Positions 1,106-59,715 of a stretch of DNA of 64,000 nucleotides are shown here, piece after piece. Positions within the stretch are counted from its first letter, which is position 1. Every line of letters starts with the position of its first letter. The position numbers were made by a program, and so were the translations under genes. Source of the DNA: Eledone cirrhosa (lineage: Eukaryota); assembly GCA_964016885.1 (NCBI GenBank), contig OZ024741.1, positions 43,586,001-43,650,000 on the forward strand, given 5' to 3'. The notes under the pieces are model-generated. The model was given only the letters and a program-made list of their open reading frames with translations, had not been told where the DNA came from and did no database searches.

Positions 1106-1328
1106 TATATATATATAATAAATGTAATCTGAGTTTCTCGAATATTAATAATAACATTCGATTTGTTTGCAATTATGCAAACAAGCCTCAATTTTATAGC
1201 CATGACAGTAGAATGAACACTTTATTCTTGCTCTTGTGTTGGCATACGAACATTATTAATAACAATCGAATATTCGAAAAACTCAGATTACATTTATTAT
1301 ATTCAGCCATGTCGAGCGAAATTTTCTT

Positions 1329-1525
1329 TATATATATATATATATGTGTGTGTGTGTGCGTGTGTGCGTGTGTGTGTGTGTGTGTGTGTGTGTGTATGTG
1401 TGTGTGTGTGTGTTTGTGTGTGTGTGTGTGTGTGTGTGTGTGTGTGTGTGTGTGTGTGTGTGTGTGTGTGTGTGTGTGTGTGTGTGTGTGTGTGTGTGTG
1501 TGTGTGTGTGTGTGCATGTGTGTGT
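1329..1525. repeat. (TA)n/(TG)n compound microsatellite (representative of dozens of tracts in the window)
   Basis: Direct reading. Other large tracts lie at about 3290-3410, 11780-11975, 24180-24440, 26155-26300, 31610-31950, 32740-32990, 44060-44205, 50100-50520 and 59350-59570. Confidence 0.99.
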
Positions 1526-2220
1526 GGGTGGGTGTATTCAATCGTATTTCTGAAACTGTATGTAAAGCGAATTGTGATGTTGAAGCCGTCTGCACAAATT
1601 AGTAGGTTATTGACGCACAATCGTATTGTGAAGTGTCTGAATCGTGGACCAAGCCGCACGTTGGCTCATTGAAGAAAAACATTTCATTTCAGTTTCATTC
1701 AGTTTATCCAGTCAACAAAAAGAAGAGGGTCACCAGGAGATTGGTGTTAACCCTTATAAAAGACTGACGTTAGGTGAAAAGTGACGTCACTTTGTGATTG
1801 TACAGGACATTAAGCCGTAAAGGAACCTCCAGTGAGATTACAGCCCATAGAAGACCAGATATATTGACGTAGGTGTGAGCTGTAACAACATTTATAATTA
1901 TGACAATATACTAGAAAAATAATAGTATTAATTAATCTAAGTCACGAAGTGCTTTTGAGATACACGTTAAACTCCCCTAATTAGACCATCACTTTATTAT
2001 ATTTCTGCTGTATTCAACGAATTAGTGTACATTAATTGTCATTCTATACCACTTAATCATTGAAAATAACATTTGGGATGATTACCAGTAAATTAAATTA
2101 AAGAATCTTTACAATTATCGGAATTATTTTGAAGAGAATAGTTCTTTCTCCAAAACTGCAAGAGAGATTATACGTTTTATATAATTACAATACACATGTG
2201 TATATATATATATATATATA

Positions 2221-2430
2221 AATGGAAAAAATGAAACGAAATTTCATTTCTCACTCTTAGTACGGCTGTTACTTAAATATAAGTATGTATACGTACATAC
2301 ATATATGTATACAGACATACAGTAGTATGCATATATATACATACATGCACACATATATACATGTAAGTATGGCTTTACCGAACATTTATTATAATGTTCG
2401 GTTTGTTTGTAAACAAACATCCCGAATTAT
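2221..2430 (+). repeat. Dispersed repeat (pLTR-like end), with copies at 31110-31340 and 63350-63690
   Basis: Shared aatggaaaaaatgaaatttcatttctcactcttagtacggctgatacttaaatataagtatg, each copy adjacent to (TA)n. Confidence 0.8.
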
Positions 2431-2436
2431 ATATAC

Positions 2437-2795
2437 AGTTACCCTAAATAAGGCACTATCCTTTGCACAAAAAACTCTGACCTTTCACCAGATGAAATTA
2501 AAATAATACTAGCTGCTAGAAGAACAATCATTACATTCGACAATAGTTACTGGGAACGAAAAAAATAGACAGGTTAACTTCGATATAACTGTGGGATCAG
2601 CCCAAATCACAGAATTGTTGGAATTTATATAGCCCATTTCTTACATAGAGAATTTGATAACCTACAAGGAGGAATCTATAGAACCGATACACTACTTTTA
2701 GCTAAAAACTTAAATAATCAAAACTTAGAAGGATTATGGAAAAAGATTGCAAAATTCTTTAATAATTTAGGCCTTAACATCACTTTTGAACCCAA
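2437..2795 (+). mobile_element. Penelope-like RT fragment, same family as 17200-17650
   Basis: Translates KALSFAQKNSDLSPDEIKIILAARRTIITFDNSYWERK...NLQGGIYR.DTLLLAKNLNNQN. Confidence 0.9.
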
Positions 2796-3869
2796 TTTTT
2801 ATTTTTACTTACTTATCCATGTATTAATTATTTACATTTATTCATGTATTTATTTGTCCCTCTGTTCTTCTTTCTATCATACGTTCTTTTTACTTATGTT
2901 TGTCTCCCCTATCTACCATCATCTTCTATATATCTTCCTCTCTTTATATTTCTATCTATAATAATTTCTCCTTTTCTTCTTCTTTCTCTTTTTCCTTCTT
3001 CTTTCTCCTTCCTTTCCTTTCTTTCTTTACTGTATCTATCTCCTTTTCTTCCTCTTTTTCTCTCTATATCTTTATTATTAATCTGAATTTGTAAATTTGC
3101 CGGCTACATATATATTTTTTTAACAGTTTCTGAAGATCTAATGGTGTTAACACCGTATTTAAAATTGACTGGAACTGCTTTTAGTTTTCAGCAATTTTTA
3201 GACAACTCTATCTTTGAAACAATTGTTAGAGCAAATAAATCCCCTTTTGTGTACTGTTGACCATGTTACTCTCTACTTTTTCAATTATATATATATACAT
3301 ATATGCATATATATATATACATGTATATATATATATATATATATATATATATATATATATATATATATATATATATATATATATATATATATATATATAT
3401 ATATATATATATGTCATCCATGTCTACGTCCAGGCACCATTACAACTACTTTTCCACAATAGCCGTCAATGAATGTTATATATATATATATATATATATA
3501 TATATATATATATGAATGATTATCTTTTATATCGATGGATACTTCATCATCAGTAGATTTAATTACATGCATAGAATATATGGTATATTGAAGTAATTTA
3601 ACATTTGAAATATTCTGAATTATGTGGAAACATTTAAAATATCAAACTGAGCTGCACTCTATAATATTTCCCCGTTTGGAATGTATAGCGATCCTATTCA
3701 TATAATCACCTGTGCAACTGAATATTTATTCTTTATTATGTATTTTATGTCACATCTACTGATCCATGTAGTCTTTGTTTTTAACGAGTCAATCAATGTT
3801 TCACCAGGTAGAGCTTGTCCAAATCGGTCGTAATAAATAATACTATGGTTATATTTTTCGACAGCAATG

Positions 3870-5340
3870 GCGTTTCTCTGTAAATCCCTCCGTCCTCATA
3901 CCTTTCCCAAAGACGTAGGGCTGATACTTTTTAAACAAAACGACACCGGCATCAGACTCACACTGATGATTCCGGAGATCATGTGAAGGACATGAGCATT
4001 GTTCTATCCTCCCCACCTAACAAACAAAAACAAAAATCAAAGATGATATAGTCTTTCAGATTTTTGTAGATAACTACATCAGTTTCCGACCATCAAATCC
4101 TATGTTTTCGAATGCAGTTAATATATTCCATTCTACGAGTATATATCTCAAGTGATTTGAGAAAATATTTAGAAGTTTACATAGTAAAGTTCCATCGCAG
4201 CTTACATATATTCTTTGATTTTATACACTAGAAAACAAAAACAAAAAAAAAAAACAGACGTCGTAGATTTTTGGCTTGGTGCTAGATTTCAACATCTGCA
4301 CCGTGATATCTAATGAAAATCTGCAGGGAGGATAGTTCAGGCTTTTAAAATGTTCGTGTTGGAATTTGGAAGACAAAATGTTTATAAAAACATTTGGAAG
4401 CTCTGGGATATAGTAAATATTACATATCTAGGGAGAAAAGATGAATCCAAAGGCTTCCGGATATATTTGAATAATCACTATAATAGCAATATTTCAAAAG
4501 AATAGCGGAAGTATAATATCAAATAAAATTGCAATTTGGAGACATGATTACATTGGACTTCTATCTATGATCTAAATTCATTGAGTAGCAAACACTTAAC
4601 AACAGCTATTTATATTTTATAATATTTTATAATATTTTATAATATTTTACTTAGCCTAAATGGGCCACTGGCCTAACTTTTAGATAGAATGTAATCAAAA
4701 TTGTTAATGCCTAACAATTTATAAATACAATATCAATCCAAATATAGCTACCATTTACATTATTTTATATTTCCTACTAAGAGAACTTAATAATGTAAAT
4801 TATTCCAAAATTATTGCGCTTAAATATTTAGATAAATACCTCGAAGACTTTTGGAATGTTACATCTTCCAATCCATGCCATTAGCCACATACTATACAAA
4901 GTGTGTAAAAGACTAAGCAATTTAAGATATTCGAATGATGGCAACGAAAACATACATATCAAATCTAAAGATGAACCAAATATAAATGAAAATAGTGATG
5001 GAAACAAAAGAAAGAACACTTTATATAATGAATCTGGAGATAAAATTGAAATGAACTGATTGAAGAGAAATACGTCGAATACAAGAAATTGGTAGAATGA
5101 AATGAAATGTGAAAGAAAAAAATTCAGAAGGTTTTTGTAAAAAGAATACAACAAAGGCTGAACATTTGAAATAATTTAAGAAATAAAAAACTACCAAAAA
5201 TAATAATGAAAACTGCCATCCATAATTGAATGGTATTTTCGTTAAAGCTTATTTTAATCATGCAGTGTCCAATTGCATGAACTTCGGCAATTGACTTTAA
5301 GCTATATTATTACGAATTCAAGAAGCCATTTCAAGTTATA
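3870..5340 (+). pseudogene. Degenerate intronless Cys-loop LGIC remnant B
   Basis: ENI*K (IWxP position), VDFWLGARF..IC, LEFG (4359-4370), LWDIVNIT (4401-4424), NSGSIISNKIAI (TM2 start), a charged M3-M4-like loop (ORF 4856-5059), then KLPSIIEWYFR and a hydrophobic tail. Confidence 0.4.
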
Positions 5341-58249: not shown

Positions 58250-58310
58250 AACACCTGATGATGTCACCAGCATCTTACGGAATGTGACCAGTAAAAATGT
58301 ACATAGTGTT
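58250..58310 (+). ncRNA. Hammerhead ribozyme with GAAA mutated
   Basis: aacac-CTGATGA-tgtcac...gtgac-cagt-AAAA-atgtac-ATA-gtgtt, with palindromic stem III atgtacat. Confidence 0.6.
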
Positions 58311-58693
58311 TGCTACAATAAATCTTTGAAGTATTTCACCAGTCCATCGTCCAGTCATTTTACTCAATAATATATATATATATATATATGTGTGTGTGTG
58401 TGTGTGTGAGTGTGTGTGTGTGTGTGTGTGTGTGTGTGTGTGTGTGTGTGTGTGTACGGAGTATTTGTCTTACAAAAGGCATTAGTAACGACTAAGCAAA
58501 CATAGTAAGAACGCATATGGTGAAGACGTTATAATATAGATAAATCAGAACTGAAGTTTAACGTTAGGAGCAGAGTTACACATATTCATATTTTGATTAA
58601 CACATGAAATGATTAATCATCTTGGCTGAAAAATACCCATAGCAACCAGAGTGCTAATATATATATATATATATATATATATATATATATATA

Positions 58694-58885
58694 CGTGGAA
58701 AAGTAAAAAAATCGGAGAATAGACCGTTAAAACATGTTTATTTAAAAAAGCACCTACGTACGTTTCGCCCAGTTGGGCTGCTCAAGGGCATAAATAATCA
58801 AAAGTGTTCCTTATATTGCTCGGAAAGAGTTTTGGGGGTTAAATCCACATCAAGGTTCATTGCTAGCAAAAATAGCTTGTTTACT
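58694..58885 (-). mobile_element. PLE pLTR, sister of 900-1105, with a hammerhead at 58750-58790
   Basis: Reverse complement match; gccca ac tgggc-GAAAC-gtac-GTA. Confidence 0.88.
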
Positions 58886-59051
58886 GCCGGCACGAATATT
58901 TAATACTGCCGGCACTAGTATCGAGCACCTTTGGCATACGCTACTTGGCAAATAACTATATGTATCACCTATCCTCCCCTTTTTTTCTCTTTCTCGATAT
59001 GTAAATACTGTATGTATATATATATATATATATATATATATATATAGTAAT

Positions 59052-59232
59052 AATTGTTTCTACTTTTGGCACAAGGCCAGCAATTACCCAGTACATTACT
59101 GGTAATTTATTTTATCGACCCCGTAAGGATGAAAGGCAAAGTTGATCTCGGCGGGATTTGAACTCAGAATGGAAAGGGCCGTAATTCTATGCGTCAAAGC
59201 ATGACGTCCAAACCTCTACCAATACTGCCAAA
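59052..59232 (-). mobile_element. Main-family SINE
   Basis: Consensus match; TSD atagtaataat. Confidence 0.93.
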
Positions 59233-59569
59233 TAGTAATAATAATAAATTTGAAGACTAAAATCCAAAGAGGGCTCGATAAAGTTAAATATATATCAAAT
59301 ATATATGAACCGCAGAGCAAATATTTATTAAAATCTGTTATTTTAATAAATATATATATATATATATGTGGTTGTGTGTGTGTGTGTATACATACATATA
59401 TATATATATATATGCATGTATATATATATATATATATATATATATATATGTATGTATATATATATATATACATATATATATATATATATATGTACATATA
59501 TATATATATATATATATATATATATATATATATATATATATATATATATATATATATATATATATATAT

Positions 59570-59715
59570 ATTCGGTCCTCAATGTTGCCATTGATTGACA
59601 AGCGGTCAAAAATACAACGAAAGAACTTTGATAAACTATATATATGTGTTTGTGTGTATATTGTATCCGTATTTTTGACCGTTGGTCAGTCAATGGCAAC
59701 ATTGAGGACCGAATA
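59570..59715. repeat. Inverted duplication, arms about 46 bp, abutting (TA)n
   Basis: attcggtcctcaatgttgccattga..gac.a.cggtcaaaaatac / gtatttttgaccg..ggtcagtcaatggcaacattgaggaccgaat. Confidence 0.92.

Follow-up and report, generated by a model that had tools for sequence, protein, structure and literature searches.

Most of the inverted duplications in a 64 000-nt window of the Eledone cirrhosa genome (the whole stretch of DNA analysed here) are probably footprints of target-primed reverse transcription (TPRT) in (TA)n, chiefly by Penelope-like elements (PLEs) and non-autonomous derivatives of their pLTRs, with a minority attributable to DNA repair. The anatomy of the pairs, their membership of families, breakpoints that are fixed within a family and the enrichment of TA at their ends are directly observed. 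Fourteen pairs were recognized (Table 1; pairs are named by their approximate outer ends), of which eight have PLE anatomy (five well supported and three probable), one looks like a CR1-type LINE, one is ambiguous, two look like products of snap-back and two like long-spacer copies; six of the fourteen are not clearly PLE. All 13 pairs of the original prediction were recovered by alignment, with coordinates exact or a few bases off and identities of 86–99 % over aligned columns, and the fourteenth, 25751/25844, had been overlooked.

Table 1. Inverted pairs, related family copies and PLE remnants in the window
Coordinates	Strand	Feature	Details
1..1103	+	3′ part of Hydra-clade-like PLE	GIY-YIG-type ORF 1-612, CxCX5C + CxxC; then pLTR
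1118..1328	.	Inverted repeat 1118-1146 / 1269-1297	Between two (TA)n runs; 33/34 identical
6560..6820	+	Family A copy, no clear inverted arm	3′ end at (TA)n
11128..11285	+	Family A 3′ end (11205-11283) and its inverted copy (11128-11199)	
13224..13441	.	Near-perfect hairpin	103/104 identical; (TA)n centre; (TA)5 at right outer end
15236..18130	-	Second Hydra-clade-like PLE	RT remnants; EN with CxCX5C + CxxC at 16133-16585
21731..22080	-	5′-truncated CR1-type LINE in (TA)n	5′ junction carries about two tail units, inverted (22061-22080)
23017..24176	+	PLE end	Inverted pLTR copy 23017-23267; pLTR 23931-24176
25751..25854	.	Hairpin with (TC)n(TA)n(GA)n centre	(TA)n at right outer end
31107..31612	-	Family B locus	Inverted piece 31436-31610; strict core at 31411 in spacer
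31953..32731	.	Inverted repeat 32366-32544 / 32567-32731	Left end (TA)7; right end short degenerate TA tract
34061..34324	+	Inverted repeat with nested 24-bp junction palindrome (34125-34148)	Strict core 34143 in spacer
42322..44527	.	Sequence X, 317 nt, 42322-42638, and inverted copy 44209-44527	1.57-kb spacer
44641..49101	.	Composite segment 44641-45294, inverted duplicate at 48472-49101	Y + (TA)n + CR1 tail
50559..51391	+	Inverted 71-nt copy 50559-50629 of T-rich stretch 50904-50974	
51659..51878	+	Family C copy	Inverted piece 51659-51720; about 95-nt tail
59232..59349	-	Second family C copy	Own 18-nt inverted piece adjoining (TA)n
59572..59833	+	Family A copy, 5′-truncated within hammerhead-like core	Inverted internal piece 59572-59615 precedes

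The arms range from 18 non-TA nt (21730/22080) to about 630–660 nt (44640/49100). With simple repeats masked, BLAST finds 24 local (≤6 kb) inverted matches of at least 44 bits, SINE–SINE pairs among them, where 20 block-shuffled windows average 0.05; at a threshold of at least 32 bits the figures are 30 and 1.6. Four weak inverted repeats (6667, 39917, 54029 and 60697) are near chance level. The arms had been thought to include CR1 tails and unique DNA. A CR1 tail is indeed present, but the description as unique DNA fails for several arms, because those at 11133, 59570, 31162 and 51655 recur elsewhere in the window and the 23017 arm has a third end piece of 19 nt.

The PLE anatomy consists of a head-to-head inverted 3′ piece, an optional tail, hammerhead-like cores and fixed family breakpoints, and an inverted 5′-truncated copy lies head-to-head beside the 5′ end at 11133, 59570, 31162, 51655, 59232 and 23017. 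In other copies of the same family the spacer runs on uninterrupted into one arm, and in copies of families A, B and C the second arm may be absent or of different length. The family A copy at 6560 carries a strict CTGANGA..GAAA core at 6607 with a 5-bp stem II; at 11128–11285 the inverted copy lies 5′ of the family A 3′ end across a junction of about 5 nt of TA-like filler, and the inverted internal piece of the copy at 59572 begins at (TA)n. In family B the inverted piece begins at an internal TATA, some 55 nt short of the family 3′ end. This family is also represented at 2221 and 63345, and its two ends are separated by about 55 nt. In two independent copies of family C the inverted piece starts at the identical nucleotide, some 95 nt short of the 3′ end, and the copy at 51659 has a palindromic junction at a variant of the hammerhead-like core (51722). 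Between its pLTR copies the PLE end at 23017–24176 holds a (CA)n-rich UTR and the C-terminal remnant of an ORF, which we take to be GIY-YIG from its motif rather than an HMM match; both outer ends are at (TA)n, and the pLTR has a CCGAAGA..GAAA core (23991) with a 5-bp stem II. One-sided extensions measure about 30 nt (1117), 55 nt (family B), 95 nt (family C) and 120 nt (59570), only the first of which falls in the published 30–40-nt range, the others exceeding it.

The pairs at 1117, 34071 and 50557 are probably also of PLE type, on weaker likenesses in their sequences. The first has its extension and a weak similarity to family B (E=0.021), and the second its nested palindrome and spacer core. 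At 50557 the T-rich stretch lies upstream of a family D pLTR-like end, itself at (TA)n 51392, and the locus has a 74 % match to 2789–2855, beside a PLE RT remnant. A candidate GIY-YIG remnant in the 50557 spacer is not supported, there being no motif in three frames and only a weak SINE-like match (E about 0.04).

Coding remnants of two Hydra-clade-like PLEs stand outside the inverted pairs. Their ORFs (1–612 and 16133–16585) are 34 % identical (E=3×10−18), and both have C-terminal EN motifs of the CxCX5C linker and downstream CxxC type defined for the Hydra-clade PLE EN, a clade in which almost all families insert in (TA)n (PMC8557442). Pfam gives an RVT_1 match in 17208–17552 (E=0.0086) and none for the GIY-YIG domain, which is read from its motifs. 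The first element has a variant hammerhead-like core at 1014 in its pLTR and ends at (TA)n; the second, with boundaries read from the sequence, has the motif AAGTATAAC at its 3′ end in common with family A and adjoins an RTE-type LINE, not (TA)n. Families A–D have no physical link to a PLE ORF within the window.

Seven strict CTGANGA..GAAA cores occur in the window, three of them in families or loci of PLE-type pairs, two of these three being within inverted-repeat spacers on the predicted strand (31411 and 34143). A looser core scan gave 11 matches against a shuffled mean of 3.7 and a shuffled maximum of 10. The window scan found no full type-I hammerhead pattern, single-sequence folds gave no clean hammerhead fold, and neither a hammerhead nor any other Rfam family reached gathering score in the window. 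Among the 150 of 167 Rfam matches listed by E-value there is no hammerhead; they comprise miRNA-type models on microsatellite hairpins and two unrelated weak matches, the best E-value being that of the 25751 hairpin to mir-3688, below gathering score.

Eleven pairs had been predicted to end at (TA)n, and ten of them have an outer end ≤6 nt from a run of (TA)≥4; at 51655 a degenerate TA/CA tract adjoins the end, but a pure run is 14 nt away. Both sides are at (TA)n at 21730, 23017 and 42321, and at 32365 with a degenerate right tract, and neither 34071 (19 nt away) nor 50557 has an outer end directly at (TA)n. Overall 14 of 36 outer ends (39 %; the four weak repeats included) are at (TA)n, compared with 0.93 % expected per end at random and 5 of 36 inner ends. 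The expected enrichment of arm ends is strong relative to random positions, but relative to dispersed-repeat ends (12 of 62, 19 %) it is only about twofold (Fisher p=0.056). An inverted copy is found at 21 of 110 TA-array edges, against 73 of 1378 random positions; (CA)n control edges gave 1 of 26 (p=0.075), a sample too small to decide. PLE-like ends without an inverted partner likewise adjoin (TA)n: TA repeats follow 12 of 18 hand-listed PLE-like 3′ ends, partly picked by eye, and also the BLAST-defined ends at 917–1099, 2221, 6714–6816, 58698 and 63348. The (TA)n lies mostly outside the arms, the position of an insertion target, whereas self-priming would place it at the hairpin centre, where it is found in only two of the 14 pairs (13225 and 25751).

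These two hairpins are candidates for snap-back repair. That at 13225 has no second copy in the window and no microhomology at its 13224 outer junction; that at 25751 has TATA microhomology at its outer junction and lies 3′ of a PLE-like end that has its core at 25578. The 32365 pair is ambiguous, being either Helitron-like or a partial tandem of PLE type with an offset of 537 nt. Its fold point is within a hairpin, which in the direct copy 31953–32045 is followed by CTAG/T; the A/TC start (32365) and CTAG/T (near 32043) are on two separate local copies, TC beside (TA)n is weak evidence, and the predicted sub-terminal hairpin has a 5-bp stem just upstream of CTAG.

Sequence X has no third copy in the window, and was rejected as coding since stops interrupt the three frames of the right copy (on the strand examined) and every one of the six in the left region. 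The composite segment 44641–45294, comprising the 431-nt Y, (TA)n and a 124-nt CR1 tail, was duplicated as one event across element boundaries; its copies differ by 9/431 (Y) and 3/124 (CR1 tail) substitutions and have a TG interruption of the TA tract in common. The reading of this pair as a single CR1 that carries its own tail inverted at the 5′ end was rejected, because the LINE at 47160–48471 belongs to a different family: proteins 66–69 % identical to the 45270–45746 tail reach no more than 26–53 % against the 18131/47160 LINE family. The CR1 5′ end adjoins (TA)n at 45755, and a protein search with the APE fragment gave a single, uninformative match. Both 42321 and 44640 are long-spacer local copies that fit templated insertion. 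Typical Pol-theta insertions are shorter than the 35–95-nt arms and than the 317–630-nt copies placed at a distance of 1.5–3 kb.

Since (TA)n is identical on both strands, both nicked 3′ ends would be equivalent primers. Synthesis from one would begin at the 3′ RT start site of the element; from the other it would begin either there or at a second start site, internal and fixed. The two cDNAs would be joined head-to-head through 1–4 nt of microhomology, a short filler or a palindrome, leaving between two (TA)n tracts first the inverted 3′ piece, then the more-5′ spacer and finally the 3′ end in sense orientation, with or without tail. An equivalent event by a LINE at its tail would account for the CR1 pair. 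Breaks in (TA)n that were repaired by snap-back synthesis or local templated insertion better explain a minority of pairs, namely 13225 and 25751, and probably also 42321 and 44640. We infer which enzymes acted, that priming was from two strands rather than by self-priming of the cDNA, and that this minority arose by repair. Counting against TPRT by PLEs are the roughly twofold greater TA anchorage of inverted-repeat ends over dispersed-repeat ends, the hammerhead, Pfam and linkage results above, the long tails, the weak evidence for three of the assignments and the six pairs that are not clearly PLE. A wider reading, which we regard as rather doubtful, is that palindromic (TA)n makes dual priming routine in this (TA)n-rich genome for any TPRT element, whether PLE or LINE, with the arrays also serving as sites of recurrent breaks that would be mended by snap-back and kilobase-range templated insertion. 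The two together would give rise to a 20–650-bp hairpin every ~5 kb, with arms making up about 6 % of the window, and would provide much of the dsRNA hyper-edited by ADARs.

The original prediction was of one general (TA)n self-priming or fold-back mechanism. Such a single DNA-level process, in which a (TA)n cruciform breaks, self-primes or switches template and copies its neighbours, the TE content being incidental as TEs crowd (TA)n, would suit 13225 and 25751, where central (TA)n with TA at one outer end is the product expected of snap-back SD-MMEJ (PMC9303309). It would also suit the (TA)n on both flanks of the inverted copy of X, the 44640/49100 copy that spans element boundaries and the excess of inverted over direct copies at TA edges (21 versus 9 of 110), and human TA repeats are break hotspots with Pol-theta MMEJ and short templated duplications (PMC13645644). 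We nevertheless consider it unlikely, given that (TA)n is so seldom central and that eight of the 14 pairs have the published anatomy of PLE insertions. Independent family copies have the same inversion start, and inverted pieces are always head-to-head with more-5′ element sequence as spacer, both of which point to an element-encoded rule; 34071 and 50557 lack an outer (TA)n end, and dispersed-repeat ends are TA-enriched as well. It is more unlikely still that every pair is PLE, the other six having arisen through captured host or other-TE sequence, trans-mobilization or internal (UA)n self-priming. PLEs capture 0.9–1.5 kb host spacers and unrelated sequence between pLTRs and form junction palindromes (PMC3846280), one reading of 32365 is a partial tandem bearing an inverted piece 5′, 25751 is located at a PLE-like 3′ end and Y contains a family D fragment; but 21730 holds only CR1 sequence and CR1 tail units, X, Y, 13225 and 32365 are without a strict core, 25751 would be oriented tail-to-tail, and the 44640 copy contains a CR1 tail and ends at no recognizable pLTR. 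The CR1 tail, the two centre-(TA)n hairpins and the two long-spacer copies bear out the expectation that not all cases reduce to PLE.

Terminal inverted repeats of MITEs or foldback DNA transposons inserted at TA would explain the (TA)n on both sides at 21730, 23017 and 42321 (less well at 32365, where the right tract is degenerate), but are very improbable: other copies, where present, lack the second arm or differ in arm length, interiors are LINE or PLE coding remnants, and the arms are asymmetric with tails on one side. For families A–C and the CR1 this reading is already contradicted. An assembly or library fold-back artefact is scarcely credible, even though long (TA)n tracts are difficult to assemble and three hairpins are 98.6–99 % identical, as most arms differ by 3–14 % substitutions plus indels and the breakpoints obey family rules.

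The dominant class of pairs under the favoured reading, TPRT by PLEs, is already described. Accounts of Hydra-clade PLEs and also Naiad include the same head-to-head inverted 5′-truncated copies, optional one-sided tails, junction palindromes, (TA)n targets, hammerhead-like cores and CxCX5C and CxxC EN motifs (PMC8557442, PMC3846280), whereas the loci here are mostly short non-coding derivatives with degenerate cores, tails of up to 55–120 nt and a very high local density (eight candidates in 64 kb). The purified PLE protein PAc (Anolis Poseidon), a predicted dimer, cleaves and extends both strands in vitro, as we suppose here, from two RT start sites that give ends with and without tails, as families B and C show; PAc is however of another clade and prefers ATT sites over (TA)n, and the inverted insertion product itself is absent from the portion of its description used (PMC11167929). 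For L1, tails that stand inverted at the 5′ junction have been described, a rare class in primates with 39 verified loci (PMC2837659; twin priming also in PMC11702581). The 21730/22080 pair is similarly like a truncated LINE with its own tail in antisense at the 5′ junction, although here the element is CR1-type with a 9-nt tail repeat, and its target is palindromic (TA)n with no readable target-site duplication. In snap-back SD-MMEJ or Pol-theta repair at TA-repeat breaks, a repeat acting as inverted primer folds back, and its extension followed by rejoining through microhomology leaves an inverted repeat (PMC9303309, PMC13645644), a likeness that applies to 13225 and 25751, although these are germline and evolutionary and the known repair systems experimental. 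With non-autonomous Helitrons 32365 may share an A/TC start and, in the neighbouring copy, CTAG/T along with the sub-terminal hairpin (PMC4778049), but a fold-back copy replaces the 3′ end, the 5-bp stem is about 8 nt from the end and there are two local copies only. The literature searched, which takes in few subscription papers, lists nothing on CR1 dual priming or on inverted duplications of cephalopods that are anchored at TA.

The value of these observations is mainly for annotation, since such hairpins are mistakable for MITEs or miRNA precursors (as 25751 for mir-3688). A PLE mechanism with two starts and two strands gains genomic support from the fixed second start sites of families B and C, which also open it to testing in a clade that targets (TA)n. 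Should the CR1 and the four non-retro cases prove general across the genome, both dual priming, so far postulated for L1 only, and germline snap-back repair at (TA)n would become countable in a single genome, and these loci would offer a concrete candidate source of dsRNA for octopus hyper-editing.

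The window is microsatellite-dense, with a G+C content of 35.5 % and 160 (TA)n runs of at least five units that cover 4016 bases. All 13 inverted pairs of the original prediction, which attributed them to a single (TA)n-anchored fold-back process acting on unrelated sequences, were confirmed by local alignment, and a 14th (25751/25844; pairs are named by their outer coordinates) was added. With a threshold of 32 bits, masked self-BLAST returned 30 inverted rows of local span, and with one of 44 bits it returned 24; shuffled sequences (n=20) gave means of 1.6 and 0.05, respectively. 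For the anchoring count, 20 of the 30 rows were merged into 18 pairs, including four weak and one nested, and ten were left out (seven SINE–SINE matches, two cross-matches of arms already counted and one low-complexity match). Arm ends were trimmed by hand to the first non-microsatellite base; the pair 21730/22080, at 18 nt too short for BLAST, lies outside the count. The expected enrichment of arm ends at (TA)n over random positions was borne out: among ends that are not independent, a (TA)n run of at least four units is no more than 6 nt away from 14 of 36 outer and 5 of 36 inner ends, compared with 0.93 % expected for the outer ends, and none of 36 is at (CA)n.

When every testable TA-array edge (n=110) was instead taken as the starting point in seeking local copies, 21 edges had an inverted copy, representing about ten distinct events (three edges lie inside one arm and four matches are low-complexity), and nine had a direct copy; the figures for random positions were 73/1378 and 53/1378. 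In a small control, 1 of 26 CA/TG edges had an inverted copy (p=0.075 against TA). Because the ends of dispersed repeats are TA-anchored too (12/62; Fisher p=0.056 against inverted-repeat ends), the enrichment is real, yet mostly common to ordinary insertions.

Eight of the 14 pairs are of Penelope-like element (PLE) type, three of them (1117/1297, 34071/34315 and 50557/50975) only probably so, on weaker grounds. Other copies show that in 11133/11283, 59570/59715, 31162/31612 and 51655/51790 the spacer and one arm form a single stretch of the element, of which the spacer is the more-5′ part; the second arm, placed at the 5′ junction, is an inverted piece of the 3′ or sub-3′ region. The first two belong to family A, the third to family B and the fourth to family C, families read as non-autonomous derivatives of PLE terminal repeats (pLTRs). 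The inverted pieces of two family C copies, of 18 nt (59232–59349) and 62 nt (51659), start at the identical nucleotide, which lies about 95 nt short of the 3′ end that the copies share. In family B, three copies have a long end, and the end of the inverted piece falls short of it by about 55 nt. Central junctions show microhomology of 1–4 nt, short TA filler or a palindrome. The ORF end enclosed by 23017/24176 reads, by its motif, like a GIY-YIG C-terminus; this pair also encloses a pLTR with a hammerhead-like core, and three of the window's seven strict cores (CTGANGA..GAAA) fall in family A and in the spacers of 31162/31612 and 34071/34315. ORFs 1–612 and 16133–16585 both carry CxCX5C and CxxC, described as a signature of the Hydra clade, nearly all families of which target (TA)n (PMC8557442). 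Inverted 5′-truncated copies, a head-to-head order, tails and palindromic junctions are all described for PLE insertions, as is the capture of host spacers (PMC8557442, PMC3846280); a PLE protein is reported to cleave and extend both strands, with two internal start sites (PMC11167929), and retrozymes have been tied to pLTRs (bioRxiv 10.64898/2026.07.22.740005). Counting against the PLE assignment, the window gave no Rfam hit or full-pattern match for a hammerhead and no Pfam GIY-YIG domain, and most tails exceed the published length.

Several neighbouring arrangements may be noted. The pLTR-like 3′ ends of family D (59833–59990 and 44977–45072, both on the minus strand) adjoin short TA runs, and at 59833 the family D end stands tail-to-tail with a family A end, two elements having entered one (TA)n from opposite sides. 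A direct repeat of 228 nt (32994–33221/33657–33884; 90 %) is bounded on each outer side by (TA)n; no hammerhead core was found within it, and it looks like a PLE-style partial tandem. Another, of 138 nt (30569–30706/30859–30996), has on the minus strand a head resembling a tRNA and adjoins a family B partial tandem.

To the anatomy of the pairs, their family structure, the fixed starts and the TA placement, all read directly from the window, a mechanism may be fitted in which a PLE (or LINE) would nick palindromic (TA)n on each strand, each nicked end would serve as primer for a cDNA begun at a 3′ start site, and microhomology would join the two cDNAs. The product is no different if, as PMC3846280 proposes, an antisense template is used for self-priming, and this route cannot be separated here from two-strand priming. 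One pair, 21730/22080, is of LINE class: 21731–22080, set in (TA)n, is a 5′-truncated CR1-type 3′ end whose 5′ junction carries about two tail units in antisense, and it matches L1 loci with inverted tails, for which variants of twin priming or a postulated dual priming are the explanation offered (PMC2837659); PMC11702581 treats twin priming and foldbacks linked to L1. No such inverted tail is seen at the 5′ junction of the other CR1 that is inserted in (TA)n (45170–45755).

DNA-level repair perhaps accounts for two to four of the 14 pairs. The originally predicted fold-back mechanism fits directly only 13224–13431 (103/104 identical) and 25751–25844, whose layout, A-(TA)n-A′-(TA)m, is what would remain if a broken (TA)n folded back, was extended and then rejoined; snap-back SD-MMEJ (PMC9303309) and TA fragility with MMEJ (PMC13645644) have been described. 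Alternatively, these two hairpins may be of retro origin and carry a TA palindrome at the junction. The two long-spacer pairs are read most simply as local templated insertions, with local 3′ transduction or PLE capture as possible alternatives: X′ (44209–44527) is an inverted 317-nt copy flanked on either side by (TA)n, and 1.57 kb separates it from its sole homologue, and 44641–45294 (a sequence Y, (TA)n and a CR1 tail) was copied as one unit, with 9/431 and 3/124 substitutions and a shared TA-tract interruption. A single-LINE inversion was ruled out for the latter, since the LINE at 47160–48471, like its copy at 18131–20990, is of another family than the CR1 tail at 45170. At 44060–45170, a possible recurrent break site, two inserts lie between three long (TA)n arrays, and both have an inverted twin 1.5–3.5 kb off. 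The remaining pair, 32365/32733, is ambiguous. Its fold point lies inside a hairpin; because this hairpin is followed by CTAG|T in the adjacent direct copy and the start is A|TC, it may be Helitron-like (compare the non-autonomous Helitrons of PMC4778049), but the pair could equally be a partial tandem of 537 nt, an internal (TA)7 having primed its inverted 5′ piece.

Decayed transposable elements crowd the window, including Pfam-supported LINE RT/APE remnants, a multi-copy SINE and two PLE remnants. The CR1, RTE and Tx1 labels for the LINE remnants are tentative and based on motifs, as is that of 36300–40310 (+), presumably a decayed Tx1/L1-like LINE with an internal deletion, to which no Pfam match was found.

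Coordinates of the multi-copy SINE and of the two-copy decayed LINE
Feature	Positions	Character
Multi-copy SINE, part 1	10494–10868, 17646–17830, 24530–24682, 26379–26593, 29717–30032, 40367–40471	both orientations in family
Multi-copy SINE, part 2	41353–41530, 52990–53203, 57571–57793, 59049–59231, 62911–63099	both orientations in family
Decayed LINE, two copies about 80 % identical	18131–20990 (+); 47160–48471 (-)	Q/N-rich repeated leader, APE, RT

Most SINE copies lack TA anchoring, and local tandem duplications are present; a 71-nt direct duplication of SINE-adjacent sequence (24425–24565) is (TA)n-anchored. An RTE-type RT fragment, 35340–36072 (-), is broken on its 3′ side exactly at (TA)n 35243–35338, in mid coding region, which suggests a DNA-level breakpoint. 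At 57222–57292, (AAT)n followed by (TAT)n and (TA)n forms a small simple-repeat inversion adjoining the 5′ junction of an RTE-type fragment. In Octopus vulgaris, PLEs, CR1 and Helitrons are reported as confirmed active classes (PMC13282606).

The pairs had also been proposed to feed dsRNA to A-to-I editing. The arms sum to about 2.06 kb per side, both arms making up about 6 % of the window (added by hand from coordinates), and ten short-spacer pairs have predicted uninterrupted helices of 19–67 bp, some with TA repeats within them. No host gene was identified in the 64 kb; competing dsRNA sources are (UA)n itself and inverted SINE pairs, several of which, at most 6 kb apart, are additional candidates. 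Metazoan hyper-editing is described as targeting inverted repeats, the octopus signal being among the strongest (PMC5625713). The inverted pairs are real and are probably for the most part the known PLE insertion footprint in (TA)n, and the small residue beyond it would be LINE dual priming and repair of TA breaks.
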